Source: Candidatus Magasanikiibacteriota bacterium
GTDB lineage: Bacteria; Patescibacteriota; Patescibacteriia; Magasanikbacterales; GWA2-37-8
Assembly (NCBI GenBank): GCA_963802255.1
Contig: CAWDHY010000001.1
Location: 107,274 to 171,273 of the forward strand
Direction: 5' to 3'
DNA length: 64,000 nucleotides
Made by a program: the position numbers and the translations under genes. Below, piece by piece: positions 32,407-56,612 of this stretch (position 1 is its first letter; the number at the start of each line of letters is the position of its first letter). The notes under the pieces were generated by a model. The model searched no databases and was not told the origin of the DNA. It saw only the letters and a list, made by a program, of their open reading frames with translations.

Positions 32407-32805
32407 ATGAGACTACTTAAACAGATACTAATTTTTACACTACTGTTGAATGGCGTTATGATACTTGCACCGGTCGTATGTTTTTCAAGTGAAGTAAAAA
32501 CAGTAGATCTTGAAAACCCGATACAGTTAAAAGATAGTAAGGGTAAAGTGCTGAAAGATGAAGCGATTACCCCGGCTGTAATAATAGGTACGGTAATAAA
32601 GTCGTTTTTAGGGGTTGTCGGCGGCTTATCATTGGTAATGATGGTTTATGGAGGTTTTCAGTGGCTCACCTCTGCCGGGAATGACGAAAAGGTTAAGCGC
32701 GGCACACAAACGATGATGTGGTCAATAATCGGATTAGTGGTGGTTTTAGCCAGTTATTTACTGGTCAATACTGTTCTTAGATTTTTGGCTGGTGCAAAGT
32801 CTTGA
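32407..32805 (+). CDS. two-TM pilin-like protein, paralog 2
   Basis: core LVMMVYGGFQWLTSAGNDEKVKRGTQTM..IGLVVVLASYLLVNTVL. Confidence 0.6.
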   Translation: MRLLKQILIFTLLLNGVMILAPVVCFSSEVKTVDLENPIQLKDSKGKVLKDEAITPAVIIGTVIKSFLGVVGGLSLVMMVYGGFQWLTSAGNDEKVKRGTQTMMWSIIGLVVVLASYLLVNTVLRFLAGAKS

Positions 32806-32896
32806 TGATTGCGTAAAATATCATTTTAAGATAAAATATTTTTAAGTAATGATTATCCGGCACATAAGTGCCAATTCCTTGAAAGGGGGTGAAATT

Positions 32897-33310
32897 ATGA
32901 AAAAATTAGTAGTATTTGCAGCTTCATTTGCCTTGTTATTGGGTGGTTTTATGAGTTTCAATGTAGCTCCGGCATATGCCAGCGAAGGCGTTCTCGGTAC
33001 AGATGATTTAGGCATTGGATATGCAGCTGATACAGGTCTCGGTAGTGAAGATGTTCGTGCCACAGTTGCACGTATCATCCGAGTGGCCATGGGCCTGCTA
33101 GGTATCGTCGCTGTTGTTATTATTTTGATCGGTGGTTTTAAATGGATGACTGCCGGCGGTAATGAAGAACAGGTCGGAGAAGCTAAAAAATGGATATTCT
33201 CCGGTGTGATTGGTTTGGCTATTATTTTGTCAGCATATGCGTTAGCCAGCTTTATTATTTCTCAATTAGTCACGGCAACAACCGGGACGGGTTCCGGTAC
33301 GGGACTATAA
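32897..33310 (+). CDS. two-TM pilin-like protein, paralog 3
   Basis: SD GGGGGTG upstream of ATG 32897; core IILIGGFKWMTAGGNEEQVGEAKKWI..IGLAIILSAYALASFII. Confidence 0.6.
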   Translation: MKKLVVFAASFALLLGGFMSFNVAPAYASEGVLGTDDLGIGYAADTGLGSEDVRATVARIIRVAMGLLGIVAVVIILIGGFKWMTAGGNEEQVGEAKKWIFSGVIGLAIILSAYALASFIISQLVTATTGTGSGTGL

Positions 33311-43268: not shown

Positions 43269-43384
43269 ACCTAGGTCTGCTCTTTCCCTGCCATACGCCC
43301 GGCTATCCATGCCGGGTTTTTTTTCGCTATTTTTGCATATTTATTTGGTTATTATTTATCCACATTTTGTCCCATTTCATGCTC

Positions 43385-43413: not shown

Positions 43414-43769
43414 GTGCCTACGATTAAAACCCCTTTGGGGACCACGTCCAATCTCATGGATACAAATCGTATCCGCCTGGACCTCTGGGTAAGACTTTTA
43501 CTCAATTGTAAAAGACAGGTAATGTTAACCATTATCAAACAACTCAAATCTTACTCATAGTATCCAAGCGGTTCAAACTCACAAAAATTGAGTCGCTTGT
43601 CGCGGCTCATTTTTTTATCTCACACTCCGGCCAATATATTGGCAGGAGCAATGAGACAAGAAATGGATTGCACGTTGACAATTTAAATAGTTCAACAAAA
43701 AAAGCAGATTTATATCTGCTGGGTAGAACGCAACAAAACACTGTTTGGTGTTTTCGTTGTGTGCAATTT

Positions 43770-46870
<3,101 letters not shown>

Positions 46871-46957
46871 AAGTAGTGTTTTCTCACAGAATTTTCTGTT
46901 TTACAATTGAACTATATATTAAATCCGACCAGTGTCGGAACGAACTGAGTACAGAGT

Positions 46958-47064
46958 TCAGGTGCCTTAAGCGACAGGGTCACACCCGATCCCATCCCGA
47001 ACTCGGCAGTTAAGCCTGTCAGCGCCGATGATAGCGTGACCCGCAAAAGTAGGCCGGCGCCTGA
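46958..47064 (+). rRNA. rrf: 5S ribosomal RNA
   Basis: helix I tcaggtgcc/ggcgcctga; internal cccatcccgaactcggcagttaagc; flanked by a long processing stem gaactgagtacagagttcagg/cctgaaccttgtactcagtt. Confidence 0.8.
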
Positions 47065-47188
47065 ACCTTGTACTCAGTTTTTTTGTACCTGTACATAAGA
47101 ATAAATGACGCCGGTCGCTTCTAAGATGAATGCTTCATTTTTTAGCAAGAAAATGATAAAATAGACATATAAATTAACCCGCAAATAT

Positions 47189-52140: not shown

Positions 52141-52785
52141 ATGCAGTTAAGAGTGCTTTATGAAGATAATCATCTTATTGCCGTATATAAACCGGCCGGT
52201 GTTTTAACTCAAGGAGATAAAACAGGCGATACGTGTCTGATGGATGATGTTAAAAAATATCTGAAAGAAAAATATAAGAAATCAGGAAATATTTTTTTAG
52301 GCCTTCTTCACCGGCTTGACCGGCCGGTATCAGGAATTGTGTTGTTTGCAAAAACAAGTAAAGGCGCCTCTCGTTTGTCGGAGCAGATTAGAAATCATGA
52401 ATTTAAGAAAGAATATCAGGCGCTTGTTGAGGGCGAACTCATAAAAAAAGCGATGCTAAAAAATTATCTGTTGCACGATAAAAAAACCAATAAGGCAAAA
52501 ATATTTGATTCCAAATATGAGGGGGCTTTACCGGCGGAACTATTTTATGAAGTAATTGAAAACCGCGGTAATAATACTTTGATAAAAATTAATTTAAAAA
52601 CCGGCCGGCACCATCAAATCAGATCGCAATTGGCACACATTGGACATCCGGTCGTGGGCGATATTAAATATGGTGCCAAAGCACCGCTGTCAGATCAGTC
52701 AATCGCTTTATGCGCGACTATAATAATATTTCAAACTGCCACGGGTGGTGAAAAGAAGCGGATATCAATAAATGCGCTTTTTTAA
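52141..52785 (+). CDS. RluA-family pseudouridine synthase
   Basis: catalytic motif HRLDRPVSGIVLFAKT. Confidence 0.75.
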   Translation: MQLRVLYEDNHLIAVYKPAGVLTQGDKTGDTCLMDDVKKYLKEKYKKSGNIFLGLLHRLDRPVSGIVLFAKTSKGASRLSEQIRNHEFKKEYQALVEGELIKKAMLKNYLLHDKKTNKAKIFDSKYEGALPAELFYEVIENRGNNTLIKINLKTGRHHQIRSQLAHIGHPVVGDIKYGAKAPLSDQSIALCATIIIFQTATGGEKKRISINALF

Positions 52786-52804
52786 TTTGTCTATATACAA
52801 TGTA

Positions 52805-54079
52805 ATGATTGAACAAATTATTGATTTACACATTCATTCAAAATATTCGCGTGCTTGCTCGCGTGATTTGGAGTTGCCGAATATTGCGGTAGCGTGTGAA
52901 AAAAAGGGGATTGATATTTGTGCCACAGGTGATTTTACGCATCCCGGGTGGTATGAACATATTAAAAATATTCTTACTGAAGATAAGCCTGGTATATTCA
53001 AACTAAAGGACAATAGCTCAAAAACTCGGTTTATTCTTTCAACCGAAATATCCTGCATATACAAGCATAAAGACGCCACCAGGCGTCTGCATTTGGTTAT
53101 ATTGGCTCCGAATATTGAATCAGTAGGCAAACTTAATGGCATTTTAGAGAAAAAAGGAGCAAATTTGCGTTCAGACGGGCGTCCTATTTTAGGGCTATCC
53201 GGTAAGGCAGTCCTTCAGATCATTCTGGATATTGATAAGCGTTTTATGCTAATTCCGGCTCATGCCTGGACGCCATGGTTTTCTATTTTTGGATCAAAGT
53301 CCGGTTATAATAAATTGGATGATTGTTTTGAAGAACTTACACCATATGTGCGGGCCTTAGAAACAGGTTTGTCAAGCGACCCGATTATGAATCATATGTG
53401 GAGCGCGCTGGATAATTTCACGCTTGTTTCAAATTCTGACGCGCATAGCTTGGGAAAACTTGGGCGCGAAGCAAATGTATTTGAATTTAATAATGAAAAA
53501 GAAATTACTTACGACGAGATTTGTCGGGTGATTAAGGAAGGAGATAAGAAAAAATTTAAATATACGATAGAATTTTTTCCTGAAGAAGGAAAATATCATT
53601 TTGACGGACACGCCGATTGTTGTATTTCATTTGATCCTGAAAAGACAAAAAAAGAAAATTTTTCATGTCCGAAATGCGGTAAAAAATTAACTATCGGAGT
53701 ATTAAGTAGAGTAATAGAACTGGCCGACAGAAAGGAAAGTGAAATTCCAAAAAATAAATTCATACCGCATCGTTACATTGTGCCATTAAGTGAATTGATT
53801 TCTTTTGTGCTCGGTGTGGGAGAAAAAAGTAAAAAGGTTAATAGCGAATACGAAAAATTGATAAAAATTTTTGAAAATGAGTTTAATATATTGTTGAAAA
53901 CTCCTGTGGATGAATTGGAAAGTCATGTTAGTGATAAAAATATAGCATTAGCAATTTCAAATATGAGGCAGGGGATTATTAAGGTAAGTCCCGGTTATGA
54001 TGGGGTGTTCGGCACTTTTGATTTATTGTTAAACGAAAGTAAAAAAAGCATTCTTCAAGACAGATTATGGCAGGATTAA
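52805..54079 (+). CDS. PHP-domain protein with a C-terminal Zn-ribbon (endonuclease Q-like, TIGR00375 family)
   Basis: LHIHSKYS PHP signature; CPKCGKK Zn-ribbon. The track start at 52772 overlaps the rluA-like gene; internal ATG at 52805. Confidence 0.45.
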   Translation: MIEQIIDLHIHSKYSRACSRDLELPNIAVACEKKGIDICATGDFTHPGWYEHIKNILTEDKPGIFKLKDNSSKTRFILSTEISCIYKHKDATRRLHLVILAPNIESVGKLNGILEKKGANLRSDGRPILGLSGKAVLQIILDIDKRFMLIPAHAWTPWFSIFGSKSGYNKLDDCFEELTPYVRALETGLSSDPIMNHMWSALDNFTLVSNSDAHSLGKLGREANVFEFNNEKEITYDEICRVIKEGDKKKFKYTIEFFPEEGKYHFDGHADCCISFDPEKTKKENFSCPKCGKKLTIGVLSRVIELADRKESEIPKNKFIPHRYIVPLSELISFVLGVGEKSKKVNSEYEKLIKIFENEFNILLKTPVDELESHVSDKNIALAISNMRQGIIKVSPGYDGVFGTFDLLLNESKKSILQDRLWQD

Positions 54080-54123
54080 ATAATTAAAAAATCACCCTGA
54101 TATACAGGATGATTTTTTTAAGA

Positions 54124-54243
54124 CTATTTGCGTTTTTTCGCTTTTTTAGTCTTTTTAGCTTTTTTCTTTGTGACTTTCTTGGCTACTTTCTTCTTTGTCA
54201 CTTTCTTGGCTACTCTCTTTTTTGCGACTTTCTTCTTTGCCAT
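54124..54243 (-). CDS. 39-aa lysine-rich basic protein (AKKV/TKK repeats, histone H1-like)
   Basis: perfect SD AAAGGAGGTG 7 nt upstream of ATG 54243; sequence MAKKKVAKKRVAKKVTKKKVAKKVTKKKAKKTKKAKKRK; the + strand ORF 54128..54331 is its Phe-rich antisense artefact. Confidence 0.5.
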   Translation of the reverse strand: MAKKKVAKKRVAKKVTKKKVAKKVTKKKAKKTKKAKKRK

Positions 54244-54526
54244 AGTAGACACCTCCTTTCAACTTCGCATAAATGCGAAGAAGGATGAAAATTTTTTCAA
54301 ACTCGCGATCGCGAGAAAAAATTTTTTTTAAAAAGTTTCTGCTAACAAGCATGCAGCACAAACTTCATCGACCTATATTTATTATAGAACGGTTTTTTAA
54401 ATAAGGGAAGAGTGTTAAGTAAAGTTATACACAGGTTGATGCTTGAGCAATTTATTGAGAGGCCGGAATTGACGGATTAATTTTTTTTTGTTTAAATATA
54501 GATATATATTATTGATAATTATATAT

Positions 54527-55369
54527 ATGATTACTGAAAATCATGAGCCAAATCATGATCAGGCAAAAAATTTAGCGTTCGAAATGGAAAACTCGGATAT
54601 AAGAGACATAGTTGCGTTGGGGGCGGTGGAATATTTCAAACGTGAATTTCCGGATATTAAACATTCGTTTGCAAAAAATCAAAATTGCGTCTGTTGTATT
54701 GACGAAGGAACTGCCCATAAAGATATCAATGGTGAAATGAAATTTGCCTTAGCCGGTTCTGGGATGCTATTCCCCGCCGTGAGTGAACAAGAACGGCTGG
54801 AAGCGGTGGCAAAAATTTTAATTGAACGCGGAGTAACGGATATTACGAGTCATGGAGGCTGTGGAGCAGCCGGCCTGGCATACCATCGCGATTTTCCTGA
54901 TGCTGATACGCATGATAACTTAAAAGAGAAAATTGAAAATTACTCAAAAAGCTGGGCGGACAAGTTAGCAAATAAAATTAAAGAACTTGGTCATCCGGCG
55001 GAGCGTACTCACATATTGGCGGAAGATATGGAACGTCCGGTAGAATTTCATAACGCGCGCGTGGTGTATTATGATGGTGTTGGCGGATTTAATCCGAATA
55101 AAGAAATTGGTTTACCAATGGGTTTTGTAATTGAGCGGACATACTTGCCGGTCAGTTACGCTGTTGAAGAATCAAAGGTGGCGATTAGTATTGCGTTCGG
55201 AGCTCATGGTTTTGGAGAATTATTTTCTTCCGATTTACCTTTTGTAATTATTGTTCTGGCAAAAAATGAAGAAGACCTCACCGGTTTAAAAAATGAAATT
55301 TTGGATATTTTATCGGATAATGAAAATTTCATCGCCGGGAAAATTAAAATTGACGGGTTAGTAATATAA
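54527..55369 (+). CDS. hypothetical protein (Cys/His-containing motifs CVCCIDEGTAH and TSHGGCGAAG)
   Basis: ORF track; first ATG at 54527 (the track TTG is at 54488). Confidence 0.4.
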   Translation: MITENHEPNHDQAKNLAFEMENSDIRDIVALGAVEYFKREFPDIKHSFAKNQNCVCCIDEGTAHKDINGEMKFALAGSGMLFPAVSEQERLEAVAKILIERGVTDITSHGGCGAAGLAYHRDFPDADTHDNLKEKIENYSKSWADKLANKIKELGHPAERTHILAEDMERPVEFHNARVVYYDGVGGFNPNKEIGLPMGFVIERTYLPVSYAVEESKVAISIAFGAHGFGELFSSDLPFVIIVLAKNEEDLTGLKNEILDILSDNENFIAGKIKIDGLVI

Positions 55370-56176: not shown

Positions 56177-56248
56177 GCCCCTATAGTTTAATGGATAGAA
56201 TATCAGGCTTCGAACCTGAAGATGGGAGTTCAATCCTCTCTGGGGGCA
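56177..56248 (+). tRNA. tRNA-Arg (anticodon TCG)
   Basis: cloverleaf; anticodon loop CUUCGAA; T-loop TTCAATC. Confidence 0.8.
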
Positions 56249-56249
56249 C

Positions 56250-56506: not shown

Positions 56507-56539
56507 CAAAAAAATCCCTGACGGGACTTTTTTGTTTTG

Positions 56540-56612
56540 TGGGTCGCCAGGGATTCGGACCCTGGACCTTGTCCTTAAGAGGGACCTGCTCTACCAACTG
56601 AGCTAGCGACCC
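56540..56612 (-). tRNA. tRNA-Lys (anticodon CTT)
   Basis: cloverleaf; anticodon loop CUCUUAA; T-loop TCCGAAT; acceptor GGGTCGC/GCGACCC. Confidence 0.85.

Follow-up and report, generated by a model that had tools for sequence, protein, structure and literature searches.

The subject of this analysis is a very small lysine-rich gene on the minus strand of a Candidatus Magasanikiibacteriota genome, within the 64,000 nucleotides (nt) of contig CAWDHY010000001.1 that we call the window. An original prediction, made from the letters of the window, had described a 39-amino-acid (aa) open reading frame (ORF) preceded by a Shine–Dalgarno (SD) sequence, AAAGGAGGTG, and both lie there exactly as described. 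The translated product, MAKKKVAKKRVAKKVTKKKVAKKVTKKKAKKTKKAKKRK, contains 22 lysines, two arginines and no acidic residue, with a computed charge of about +24, a computed isoelectric point of 12 and, without the initial methionine, a computed average mass of 4375.6 Da (4506.8 Da with this residue). Among the 881 window ORFs of at least 20 aa, it is the richest in lysine and arginine. Our best reading of the sequence is that the peptide is intrinsically disordered, and that it is encoded by a self-contained monocistronic gene of about 290 nt, a cassette running roughly from 54374 to 54086 on the minus strand. The parts of the cassette and of the region upstream of it are as follows, in window coordinates:

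54423..54434, minus strand: upstream motif CTGTGTATAACT, a 12-mer unique in the window
54404..54409, minus strand: probable −35 hexamer TTCCCT, 17 nt upstream of the −10 and a weak match in the window
54381..54386, minus strand: −10 hexamer TATAAT, invariant in all 12 synteny sequences described below
54368..54374, minus strand: AGGTCGA, the conserved leader start and predicted 5′ end of the transcript
54332..54366, minus strand: leader hairpin P1, an AU-rich stem with the conserved loop ATGCTTGT at 54352..54345
54288..54325, minus strand: leader element P2, a T-tract, the GC-rich palindrome CTCGCGATCGCGAG (54315..54302) and an A-tract
54263..54280, minus strand: leader hairpin P3 (CTTCGCA-TTTA-TGCGAAG), directly 5′ of the SD
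54250..54259, minus strand: the SD, whose GGAGG core ends 8 nt before the ATG
54124..54243, minus strand: oligolysine coding sequence of 39 aa, with its ATG at 54243 and a TAG stop at 54126..54124
54086..54118, both strands: bidirectional intrinsic terminator, a 14-pair hairpin that lies between an A-tract and a T-tract and runs into TTTTTT

The oligolysine family and the case for translation

The closest relatives of the locus among species-representative genomes are Magasanikbacteria-like metagenome-assembled genomes. In the synteny set, which comprises the complete bacterial relatives of the window locus whose sequence reaches the site (n = 11; 12 sequences for the leader elements), a minus-strand ORF of 15–58 aa lies directly beyond the gene for a convergent Endonuclease Q (EndoQ) homologue in 11 of 11 cases. 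These ORFs begin with M(A/P)(A)KKK, end with KKRK, KKAR or KRR, and stand behind GGAGGTG or GGGGGTG. Metagenomes were scanned with a single pattern whose elements all belong to the upstream leader (TATAAT, GTCGA, ATGCTTGT), which gave 120 matches, 42 of them with a K/R-rich ORF within 420 nt. Once SD-led starts were assigned, the ORF begins about 90–130 nt past the leader match in most of these cassettes. Nearly all of the 42 also carry the upstream motif, which was absent from the search pattern, and the remaining, chance matches to the leader pattern have neither a K/R-rich ORF nor the upstream motif. As the pattern forces TATAAT, GTCGA and ATGCTTGT, the conservation of these elements is to be read from the 11–12 synteny-derived loci.

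A blind ORF rule (SD, ATG and K+R of at least 50%), applied to every fetched locus, recovered 54 ORFs, corresponding to 49 distinct coding sequences of 15–75 aa. All of them sit behind the conserved leader except the one at the divergent locus L012, and no SD-led K/R-rich ORF was present in 607 kb of unrelated control loci. The family is thus sampled from Magasanikbacteria-like genomes and metagenomes plus a single divergent Kerfeldbacteria locus, L012. Carriage on viral or mobile contigs was considered and rejected, as no copy was found there, and both the ORF and the upstream motif are absent from all 18 viral matches to the pattern.

The family peptides are composed of K (55.5%), A (19.6%), V (8.4%), R (5.6%) and P (3.3%), with no D, E, aromatic residue or Cys, and with L and I together at about 0.5%. 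What is conserved is the extreme positive charge, the K/A/V/R/P/T alphabet and both termini, M(A/P)AKKK and KKRK/KKAR, while the length varies. It differs even among close relatives, from 15 to 26 aa within the L003–L007 group. The window peptide has 39 aa and that of L001 has 25, although the EndoQ homologues of the two genomes are 79% identical, and the two peptides differ by an in-frame block of 14 codons. Short repeats of the (V)AKKK type occur across the family, and the length polymorphism arises through their number.

The lysine ORF is very probably a translated gene, judging by several signatures in its sequence. A GGRGG core is found in 48 of the 49 distinct members and ends 7–11 nt before the ATG, the 8-nt gap of the window being the commonest spacing of the family (33 members); an SD and an ATG are together present in all members but one. 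AAG codons interrupt the A-runs, the mean longest run being 6.29 against 8.54 in synonymous shuffles (0 of 1000 as low), and a run of eight or more is observed in 5 members as against 36 expected. This avoidance is consistent with the known tendency of ribosomes to slide along A-runs that encode lysine (PMC4363877). In the C-terminal 17 codons shared by the window and L001, there are eight differences, and each of them (8/8) is third-position and synonymous, which argues for selection on the amino acid sequence; by this comparison, the peptide sequence is under purifying selection.

An alternative would be that there is no gene here, only an A-rich non-coding spacer or repeat, with the antisense Phe-rich ORF or a +1 ORF as the real feature. 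The sequence is indeed of low complexity and uncalled by gene callers, the +1 frame has been called on one Logan contig, and the antisense frame 0 is open in 47 of the 49 members. We nevertheless find this alternative scarcely credible. The SD and ATG stand at the optimal distance, the stop precedes the terminator and the termini are conserved in essentially all 49 members, to which the synonymous-only divergence and the avoidance of A-runs can be added. The +1 and +2 sense frames are open in just 23/49 and 7/49 members, and the openness of the antisense frame is automatic, because AAR codons read YTT in reverse. The antisense Phe-rich ORF does exist opposite the lysine ORF (54128..54331, 67 aa), with a TTG start at 54128 upstream of which no SD is apparent in the window sequence. 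The original prediction had set the lysine ORF against it, and we regard it as a by-product: its openness follows from the AAR codons, and neither its product nor that of the +1 sense frame is in a collection of about 15 billion proteins. The prediction had also named conservation of the plus-strand ORF in place of the lysine ORF as the outcome that would count against it; this is not what we found, because the lysine ORF is the conserved one. As for the Logan contig, from ERR12035938 (~54155..54325, minus strand), the call is a partial 56-aa +1-frame gene at the contig edge, and is a misannotation caused by the low-complexity region.

Exact look-ups in the same collection found only one of 22 products (peptides, alternative starts, antisense and +1 forms), the sole match being an unnamed long-start form from L002. 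The gene has thus been missed by length cut-offs, as the original prediction had proposed, and by gene callers. Standard proteomics would be no better placed to reveal it, as the longest fragment of the 39-aa peptide after tryptic digestion in silico is three residues, which makes it undetectable by tryptic proteomics.

The promoter and the structured leader

Comparison across the family establishes a conserved promoter architecture. (G)GTCGA follows the −10 hexamer after 6–8 nt in 11 of the 12 synteny-derived relatives, and transcription would start at AGGTCGA, as judged from promoter geometry. The −35 position is occupied in the family by TTCACA or TTTCAT (10 each), TTCCAT and similar hexamers. 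A consensus promoter scan of the window did not call the conserved TATAAT promoter. The original prediction had instead proposed a promoter made of TTGAAA (54300..54295) and CATTTAT (54275..54269). This pair is 19 nt apart, was not called by the promoter scan, is unconserved, and lies inside P2 and P3; the conserved promoter is found about 130 nt upstream (TATAAT at 54386..54381).

The upstream motif contains TGTGTATAA, the reverse complement of a match to the DnaA-box consensus. The match itself, TTATACACA, fits the consensus TTATNCACA (taken from PMC2533591), with its reverse complement at 54433..54425. TGTGNAWAA is present in 49 of 50 cassettes, the 12-mer ends 35–37 nt before TATAAT in 47 of 48 cases, and the sole variable base of the motif (C, T or G) coincides with the N of the DnaA-box consensus. 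The window thus has the full 9-mer, and there is one box per cassette, or two in L010. From this match we infer that DnaA would bind at the upstream motif. The arrangement resembles DnaA-regulated promoters such as those of dnaA, nrd and sda in model bacteria, where a consensus 9-mer lies upstream of a sigma-70-type promoter. It differs from them in having a single box and not a cluster, and in its position at about −50 to −60, and the specificity of patescibacterial DnaA may be different. We considered whether the DnaA-like motif might instead mark an origin or a terminus, and rejected this, as the GC skew is positive throughout the window, there is no cluster of boxes, and a search of the six-frame translations for a DnaA motif found none; the locus is not near a GC-skew switch.

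Between the predicted transcript start and the ATG lies a leader of 131 nt. The stem of P1 shows compensatory changes between lineages (GTTTGTGCT/GGCAGAAAC vs. TTTTTACA/TGTAAAAA), and the covariation score of P1 and P2 together is 0.286, compared with 0.106 in shuffles (0 of 500 as high) and 0.07–0.13 in slid controls. The pairs of P1 include 37 G·U against 17 A·C, an excess which indicates that the structure belongs to the sense RNA. On this comparative evidence, P1 is an RNA structure. At the level of folding, the whole transcript has a z-score of −5.16, and the predicted folds of the sense leaders are more favourable, by 3.4 kcal/mol, than those of the reverse complements (36 of 50, p = 3e-5).

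The original prediction had read two inverted repeats as operator sites, and both are present, CTCGCGATCGCGAG at 54315..54302 and TTCGCAT-TT-ATGCGAA at 54279..54264. The operator reading may hold for one of them only. The ttcgcat/atgcgaa repeat is replaced by unrelated hairpins or absent in relatives, and therefore behaves as the variable RNA hairpin that we call P3. At its position most relatives have a hairpin of unrelated sequence, and L005-type members have none. In the predicted fold of the window, the base of P3 pairs with part of the SD, and the mean predicted probability that the SD is unpaired is 0.44 across the family. The other repeat, ctcgcgatcgcgag, is a conserved and near-always-perfect palindrome at the core of P2.

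In the window, CTCGCGATCGCGAG is unique, and P2 is predicted to fold as a long hairpin. At the tip of P2, four of five pairs have changed on both sides across the family, and changes on both arms argue for base pairing. The core sequences differ by lineage, being CTCGCGAG, CTCGCGATCGCGAG, CTTGCGATCGCAAG, of the CCCTAGGG type, TGCCATGGCA or CGCCGCGGCG. Nevertheless, at least 40 of 50 members have a perfect palindrome of 8 nt or longer without a spacer, where shuffles give 3.7; by comparison, just one of 49 terminator loops from these cassettes is self-complementary. Since a hairpin needs no self-complementary loop, the core of P2 may serve as symmetric double-stranded DNA that a dimeric regulator or a methylase recognizes, or as an element for RNA–RNA dimerization. 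As a restriction or methylation target it shows no clear genome-wide avoidance, TCGCGA and CGATCG being at expectation in the window. Separately, GATC (126 observed vs. 194 expected) and TCGA (106 vs. 167) are moderately under-represented in the window under a Markov model, which is possibly a trace of restriction–modification pressure.

A search of Rfam returned no match to the leader at gathering thresholds, and at E-values up to 10 the best match was to an unrelated family (19.9 bits against a threshold of 43 bits). With a covariance model of the leader, a single copy is detected in the window (114 bits), and L012, the Kerfeldbacteria locus, has a marginal match of 22.6 bits at the right position. 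We also used this model to look for a second cassette in the window and rejected the idea, since there is one strong match and a further 19-bit match (32797..32899) is an ordinary gene start. We therefore put the 131-nt leader forward as a candidate for a new structured RNA motif, one that covaries well and is not represented in Rfam.

The strength of this leader conservation raises the question of whether it is the RNA, or the act of translation, that is functional, and not the peptide. The ORF could be a sensor of lysyl-tRNA or of polybasic translation, or the transcript could be a dual-function small RNA that acts in trans. The strictest conservation is indeed in the leader (GTCGA, the ATGCTTGT loop and P2) and not in the peptide, and it is known that ribosomes may slow down or derail on successive lysine codons (PMC4363877, PMC9207662). 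The stop context is also oddly conserved: 36 of 49 members terminate with TAG, and in 25 of 49 TCTT directly follows the stop (54126..54120 in the window), while the long ORFs of the window end in TAA in 30 of 38 cases and in TAG in only three. However, a gene that could be regulated is missing downstream. In every member whose sequence extends far enough beyond the stop, a terminator hairpin with a T-run follows it within a few nucleotides, and the gene that comes after it is convergent, so that the layout of a leader peptide or of attenuation is lacking across the family. The placement of AAG codons avoids slippery A-runs, whereas a sensor based on stalling would call for the reverse; every difference between the window and L001 is synonymous, and the termini of the peptide are conserved. 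We regard a purely RNA- or translation-based role as quite improbable.

Candidate functions of the peptide

Homology offers little guidance to what the peptide does. A large protein search with the peptide yielded 1843 word-sharing candidates but none at an E-value up to 1e-3, which is expected when composition is corrected for. Among known families, the original prediction had likened the composition to histone H1-like or Hc-type nucleoid proteins. This likeness is borne out at the level of composition (K 55%, A 20%, V 8%, P 3%), with K/A-rich repeats, no acidic residues and a length polymorphism in repeat number as in Hc2 and the C-terminal domain (CTD) of H1, but not at the level of profile hidden Markov models. 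The search for homologs of Hc1, Hc2 and H1-like proteins gave no match at the cut-offs of Pfam and NCBIfam. In Pfam-A, which includes Hc1, no family matched the 39-aa peptide at E up to 0.01. For the NCBIfam Hc2 model (NF038052), the window peptide had no match at E up to 10, and the 75-aa member reached 6.7 bits against a cut-off of 135. The window peptide likewise did not match the Burkholderia-type model hist_H1_lk_Burk (NF038053), which is the best, though sub-threshold, NCBIfam match of the longest member (14.7 bits, E = 0.028, against a cut-off of 80). Chains in the PDB gave no sequence match at E up to 10. In the literature, we found no prior description of lysine-rich small proteins in Patescibacteria, and no bacterial gene-encoded equivalent of protamines or polyamines of such a size.

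With these results in hand, we see about an even chance that the gene encodes a regulated polycation that binds nucleic acids or other polyanions, with DNA and RNA not distinguished. Charge, composition and termini are conserved while length drifts, which argues for a bulk polycation rather than a component fitted to a fixed structural slot. In such a scheme, transcription would proceed from the conserved, putatively sigma-70-type promoter, preceded by the DnaA-box-like site at its fixed position, and would yield an mRNA with a folded 131-nt leader (P1, P2 and P3), a near-perfect SD and its own terminator. The peptide, whose length would drift through the in-frame gain and loss of repeats, would bind polyanions and neutralize them, as protamine, the H1 CTD or Hc2 does; its targets would be mainly DNA and/or RNA, with polyphosphate as a further possibility. 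A free polycation is plausibly harmful in excess, so that tight control of its dose would be expected. The upstream site could act on transcription, possibly coupling expression to replication via DnaA, and the leader could act post-transcriptionally, possibly through feedback by the peptide or by means of a factor that acts in trans and recognizes the P1 loop, which is invariant. The expression level, the binding partners, the involvement of DnaA and the role of the leader are what we infer from these sequence features.

Several known systems help to place this proposal. Hc2 binds DNA and varies in length from 165 to 237 aa via lysine-rich pentamers (PMC2848022). Like Hc2 and the H1 CTD, the peptide is of low complexity and K/A-rich, with repeats of VAKKK and AKKK and length variation in repeat number, and by analogy it would be expected to bind polyanions non-specifically. 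Unlike them, it is 3–10 times shorter, has no globular or N-terminal domain, comes from another phylum and possesses a leader and promoter of its own. It also resembles AlgP, PhaF and the Burkholderia-type H1-like proteins (KPAA/AAKP repeats, from Proteobacteria) in being a disordered polycation rich in K, A and P. Those proteins are, however, much larger and have extra domains, and the peptide is poor in proline (3%). AlgP associates with polyphosphate granules (PMC9239181), and the lysine/alanine-rich disordered region of PhaF binds RNA (PMC12818456), precedents which imply that such sequences can have targets other than DNA. Overall, the peptide looks like a very small stand-alone version of the lysine-rich nucleic-acid-binding proteins, with an undescribed leader and promoter architecture. 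Protamines, synthetic oligolysines and polyamines are likewise short, cationic and structureless, and they neutralize charge and condense nucleic acids. Protamines are eukaryotic and arginine-rich and polyamines are metabolites and not gene products, whereas here we would have a gene-encoded lysine peptide.

A ribosomal role, the main rival to this reading, provides a different explanation for many of the same features. Tiny basic ribosomal proteins are strongly expressed and often unannotated, and structured leaders are typical of their autogenous control. The peptide could thus be a lineage-specific ribosomal or ribosome-associated peptide, an analogue of bS22, bL37, bTHX or eL41, that threads into rRNA, neutralizes its charge and has an autoregulatory leader. 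It resembles these proteins, and bL34 and bL36, in its size, its charge and the structured leader ahead of the SD. In favour of this explanation are the minute size and extreme basicity of the peptide, its near-perfect SD and a promoter of its own that looks strong, and the covarying structured 5′ leader is a hallmark of ribosomal-protein autoregulation. There are also rRNA-modification enzymes and RNase III among the neighbouring genes, and Patescibacteria are reported to possess reduced ribosomes and a smaller set of biogenesis factors (PMC12641178). Yet none of bS22, bL37, bTHX, bL34, bL36 and eL41 was matched in Pfam, NCBIfam or the PDB chains, and the latter include all solved ribosomes. 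The family does not show the constant length of ribosomal small proteins: a spread of 15–75 aa, and of 39 against 25 aa in genomes with 79% EndoQ identity, is a poor fit to a fixed slot. The loop of P1 was examined as a mimic of an rRNA hairpin, and this was ruled out for 23S and 5S rRNA, since TGCTTG is absent from both in the window and there is thus no obvious mimicry of them. Finally, the gene lies outside any ribosomal-protein operon, and for the original prediction's mention of “KOW-less ribosomal tails” we found no evidence of a link. We hold a ribosomal role to be unlikely, but by no means far-fetched.

Given that the lifestyle of Patescibacteria is episymbiotic, one might also think of an exported polycationic effector, antimicrobial or cell-penetrating, directed against host or competitor cells. 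High charge and short length are reminiscent of cell-penetrating or membrane-binding oligolysines, and weakly amphipathic helices are conceivable for some members, such as L054 and L090, given their (I/V)VKK or VAKK periodicity. Cationic antimicrobial peptides are, however, typically much more hydrophobic. The hydrophobic content of the family is low and almost only Ala and Val, with no aromatics and with the negligible L+I given above, and the N-terminus is not hydrophobic. Neither a signal peptide nor a leader-cleavage motif is present, and no transporter, immunity or maturation gene is adjacent. As the family also has no copy on viral or mobile contigs, we judge an effector to be very improbable.

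Returning to the regulated polycation, several observations weigh against it. The peptide has no detectable homology to H1-like proteins, to Hc1 or Hc2, or to any other family, so that its functional class is assigned by composition alone. The shortest members, at 15 aa, are very small for a nucleoid protein. A structured and conserved leader is equally typical of ribosomal-protein genes. The neighbouring genes (EndoQ, RluA-type, RlmI-type, RNase III and sometimes a GNAT acetyltransferase) provide no specific functional link. With respect to DnaA, the 9-mer occurs at chance frequency in the window, and stable binding usually needs clusters of boxes (PMC2533591), of which the cassette has a single one.

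A more elaborate version of the polycation hypothesis would make the peptide a “genetic polyamine”, that is, a bulk oligolysine of loosely constrained length that neutralizes the charge of DNA and/or rRNA. The DnaA box would couple its synthesis to replication, in parallel to the link between histone synthesis and S phase; a new cis-regulatory RNA, comprising the P1 loop AUGCUUGU and the palindromic P2, would meter its amount post-transcriptionally; a small GNAT acetyltransferase found near some of the cassettes might tune its charge; and P2 could be a symmetric DNA site, either an operator or a methylation site, overlaid on the leader. Taken as a whole, this combination appears rather unlikely to us.

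Patescibacteria constitute a large share of bacterial diversity, with minimal genomes, and are almost entirely uncultured, so that their cell biology is known from annotation. It is therefore of interest that a gene with the hallmarks of strong and controlled expression is effectively absent from about 15 billion predicted proteins, a concrete case of how length cut-offs and low-complexity filters hide conserved genes. If the peptide is indeed an abundant counter-ion of nucleic acids, it would bear on the packing of DNA and the stabilization of reduced ribosomes in tiny cells, and would extend the range of bacterial chromatin-like and RNA-binding proteins by an oligolysine that stands alone and evolves through its repeats. 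The DnaA-box-like site at its fixed position offers a testable link between replication and the expression of the oligolysine gene.

Neighbouring genes and other features of the window

The terminator of the window cassette, of which the original prediction makes no mention, starts 5 nt past the stop codon of the peptide and is common to the convergent EndoQ gene. The latter (52772..54079, plus strand) encodes an Endonuclease Q homologue with a PHP domain that matches the structures of the Pyrococcus enzyme PfuEndoQ (5zb8 and 7k30; E = 1.8e-52) and its conservation extends across Magasanikbacteria-like genomes. Of the 45 cassettes with enough sequence, 35 have EndoQ as the convergent neighbour, and where it is absent, the cassette keeps a terminator of its own.

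A GNAT acetyltransferase of 110–130 aa (Pfam Acetyltransf_1, E down to 5e-18) is found convergent and downstream at 19 of 54 loci, often replacing EndoQ as the neighbour where the latter is missing; the 64-kb window has none. It lies 25–90 nt past the peptide stop in L014, L017, L055, L060, L104 and L111, and 1.3–6 kb downstream in 13 further loci. The association is suggestive, and the enzyme could acetylate the oligolysine peptide, but its recurrence could equally be what conserved gene order would produce anyway. The gene order of the clade is RNase III, the cassette, and then EndoQ, an RluA-type enzyme and GNAT. We considered genomic context as a clue to function and set it aside, as EndoQ, the RluA-type enzyme, RNase III and GNAT reflect the gene order of the clade and not an operon.

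On the other side, the divergent upstream neighbour (54488..55369, plus strand; likely start ATG at 54527) encodes a protein of about 280 aa that is kept in at least 18 loci of the family and has no match in Pfam and no sequence match in the PDB.

Elsewhere in the window, a 23S rRNA gene (43760..47065, plus strand) is followed by a 5S gene. The 23S measures 3102 nt against a model of 2925 positions, which is probably due to an insertion. No 16S gene is found anywhere in the 64-kb window, which suggests a split rRNA operon. A canonical DnaA-box 9-mer, TGTGGATAA (the reverse complement of TTATCCACA; 43364..43356, minus strand), lies some 400 nt upstream of the 23S gene, and matches to TGTGNATAA number only four in the window, which is at chance level overall.

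A gene for the AAG-decoding tRNA-Lys(CUU) lies 2.3 kb upstream of the lysine gene and adjoins one for tRNA-Arg(UCG) (56539..56612, minus strand, and 56177..56249, plus strand), and several long spurious ORFs overlap the two. A near-identical spurious ORF, LAQLVEQVPLKDKVQGPNPW, is present at L010, which suggests a tRNA-Lys gene near that cassette as well.

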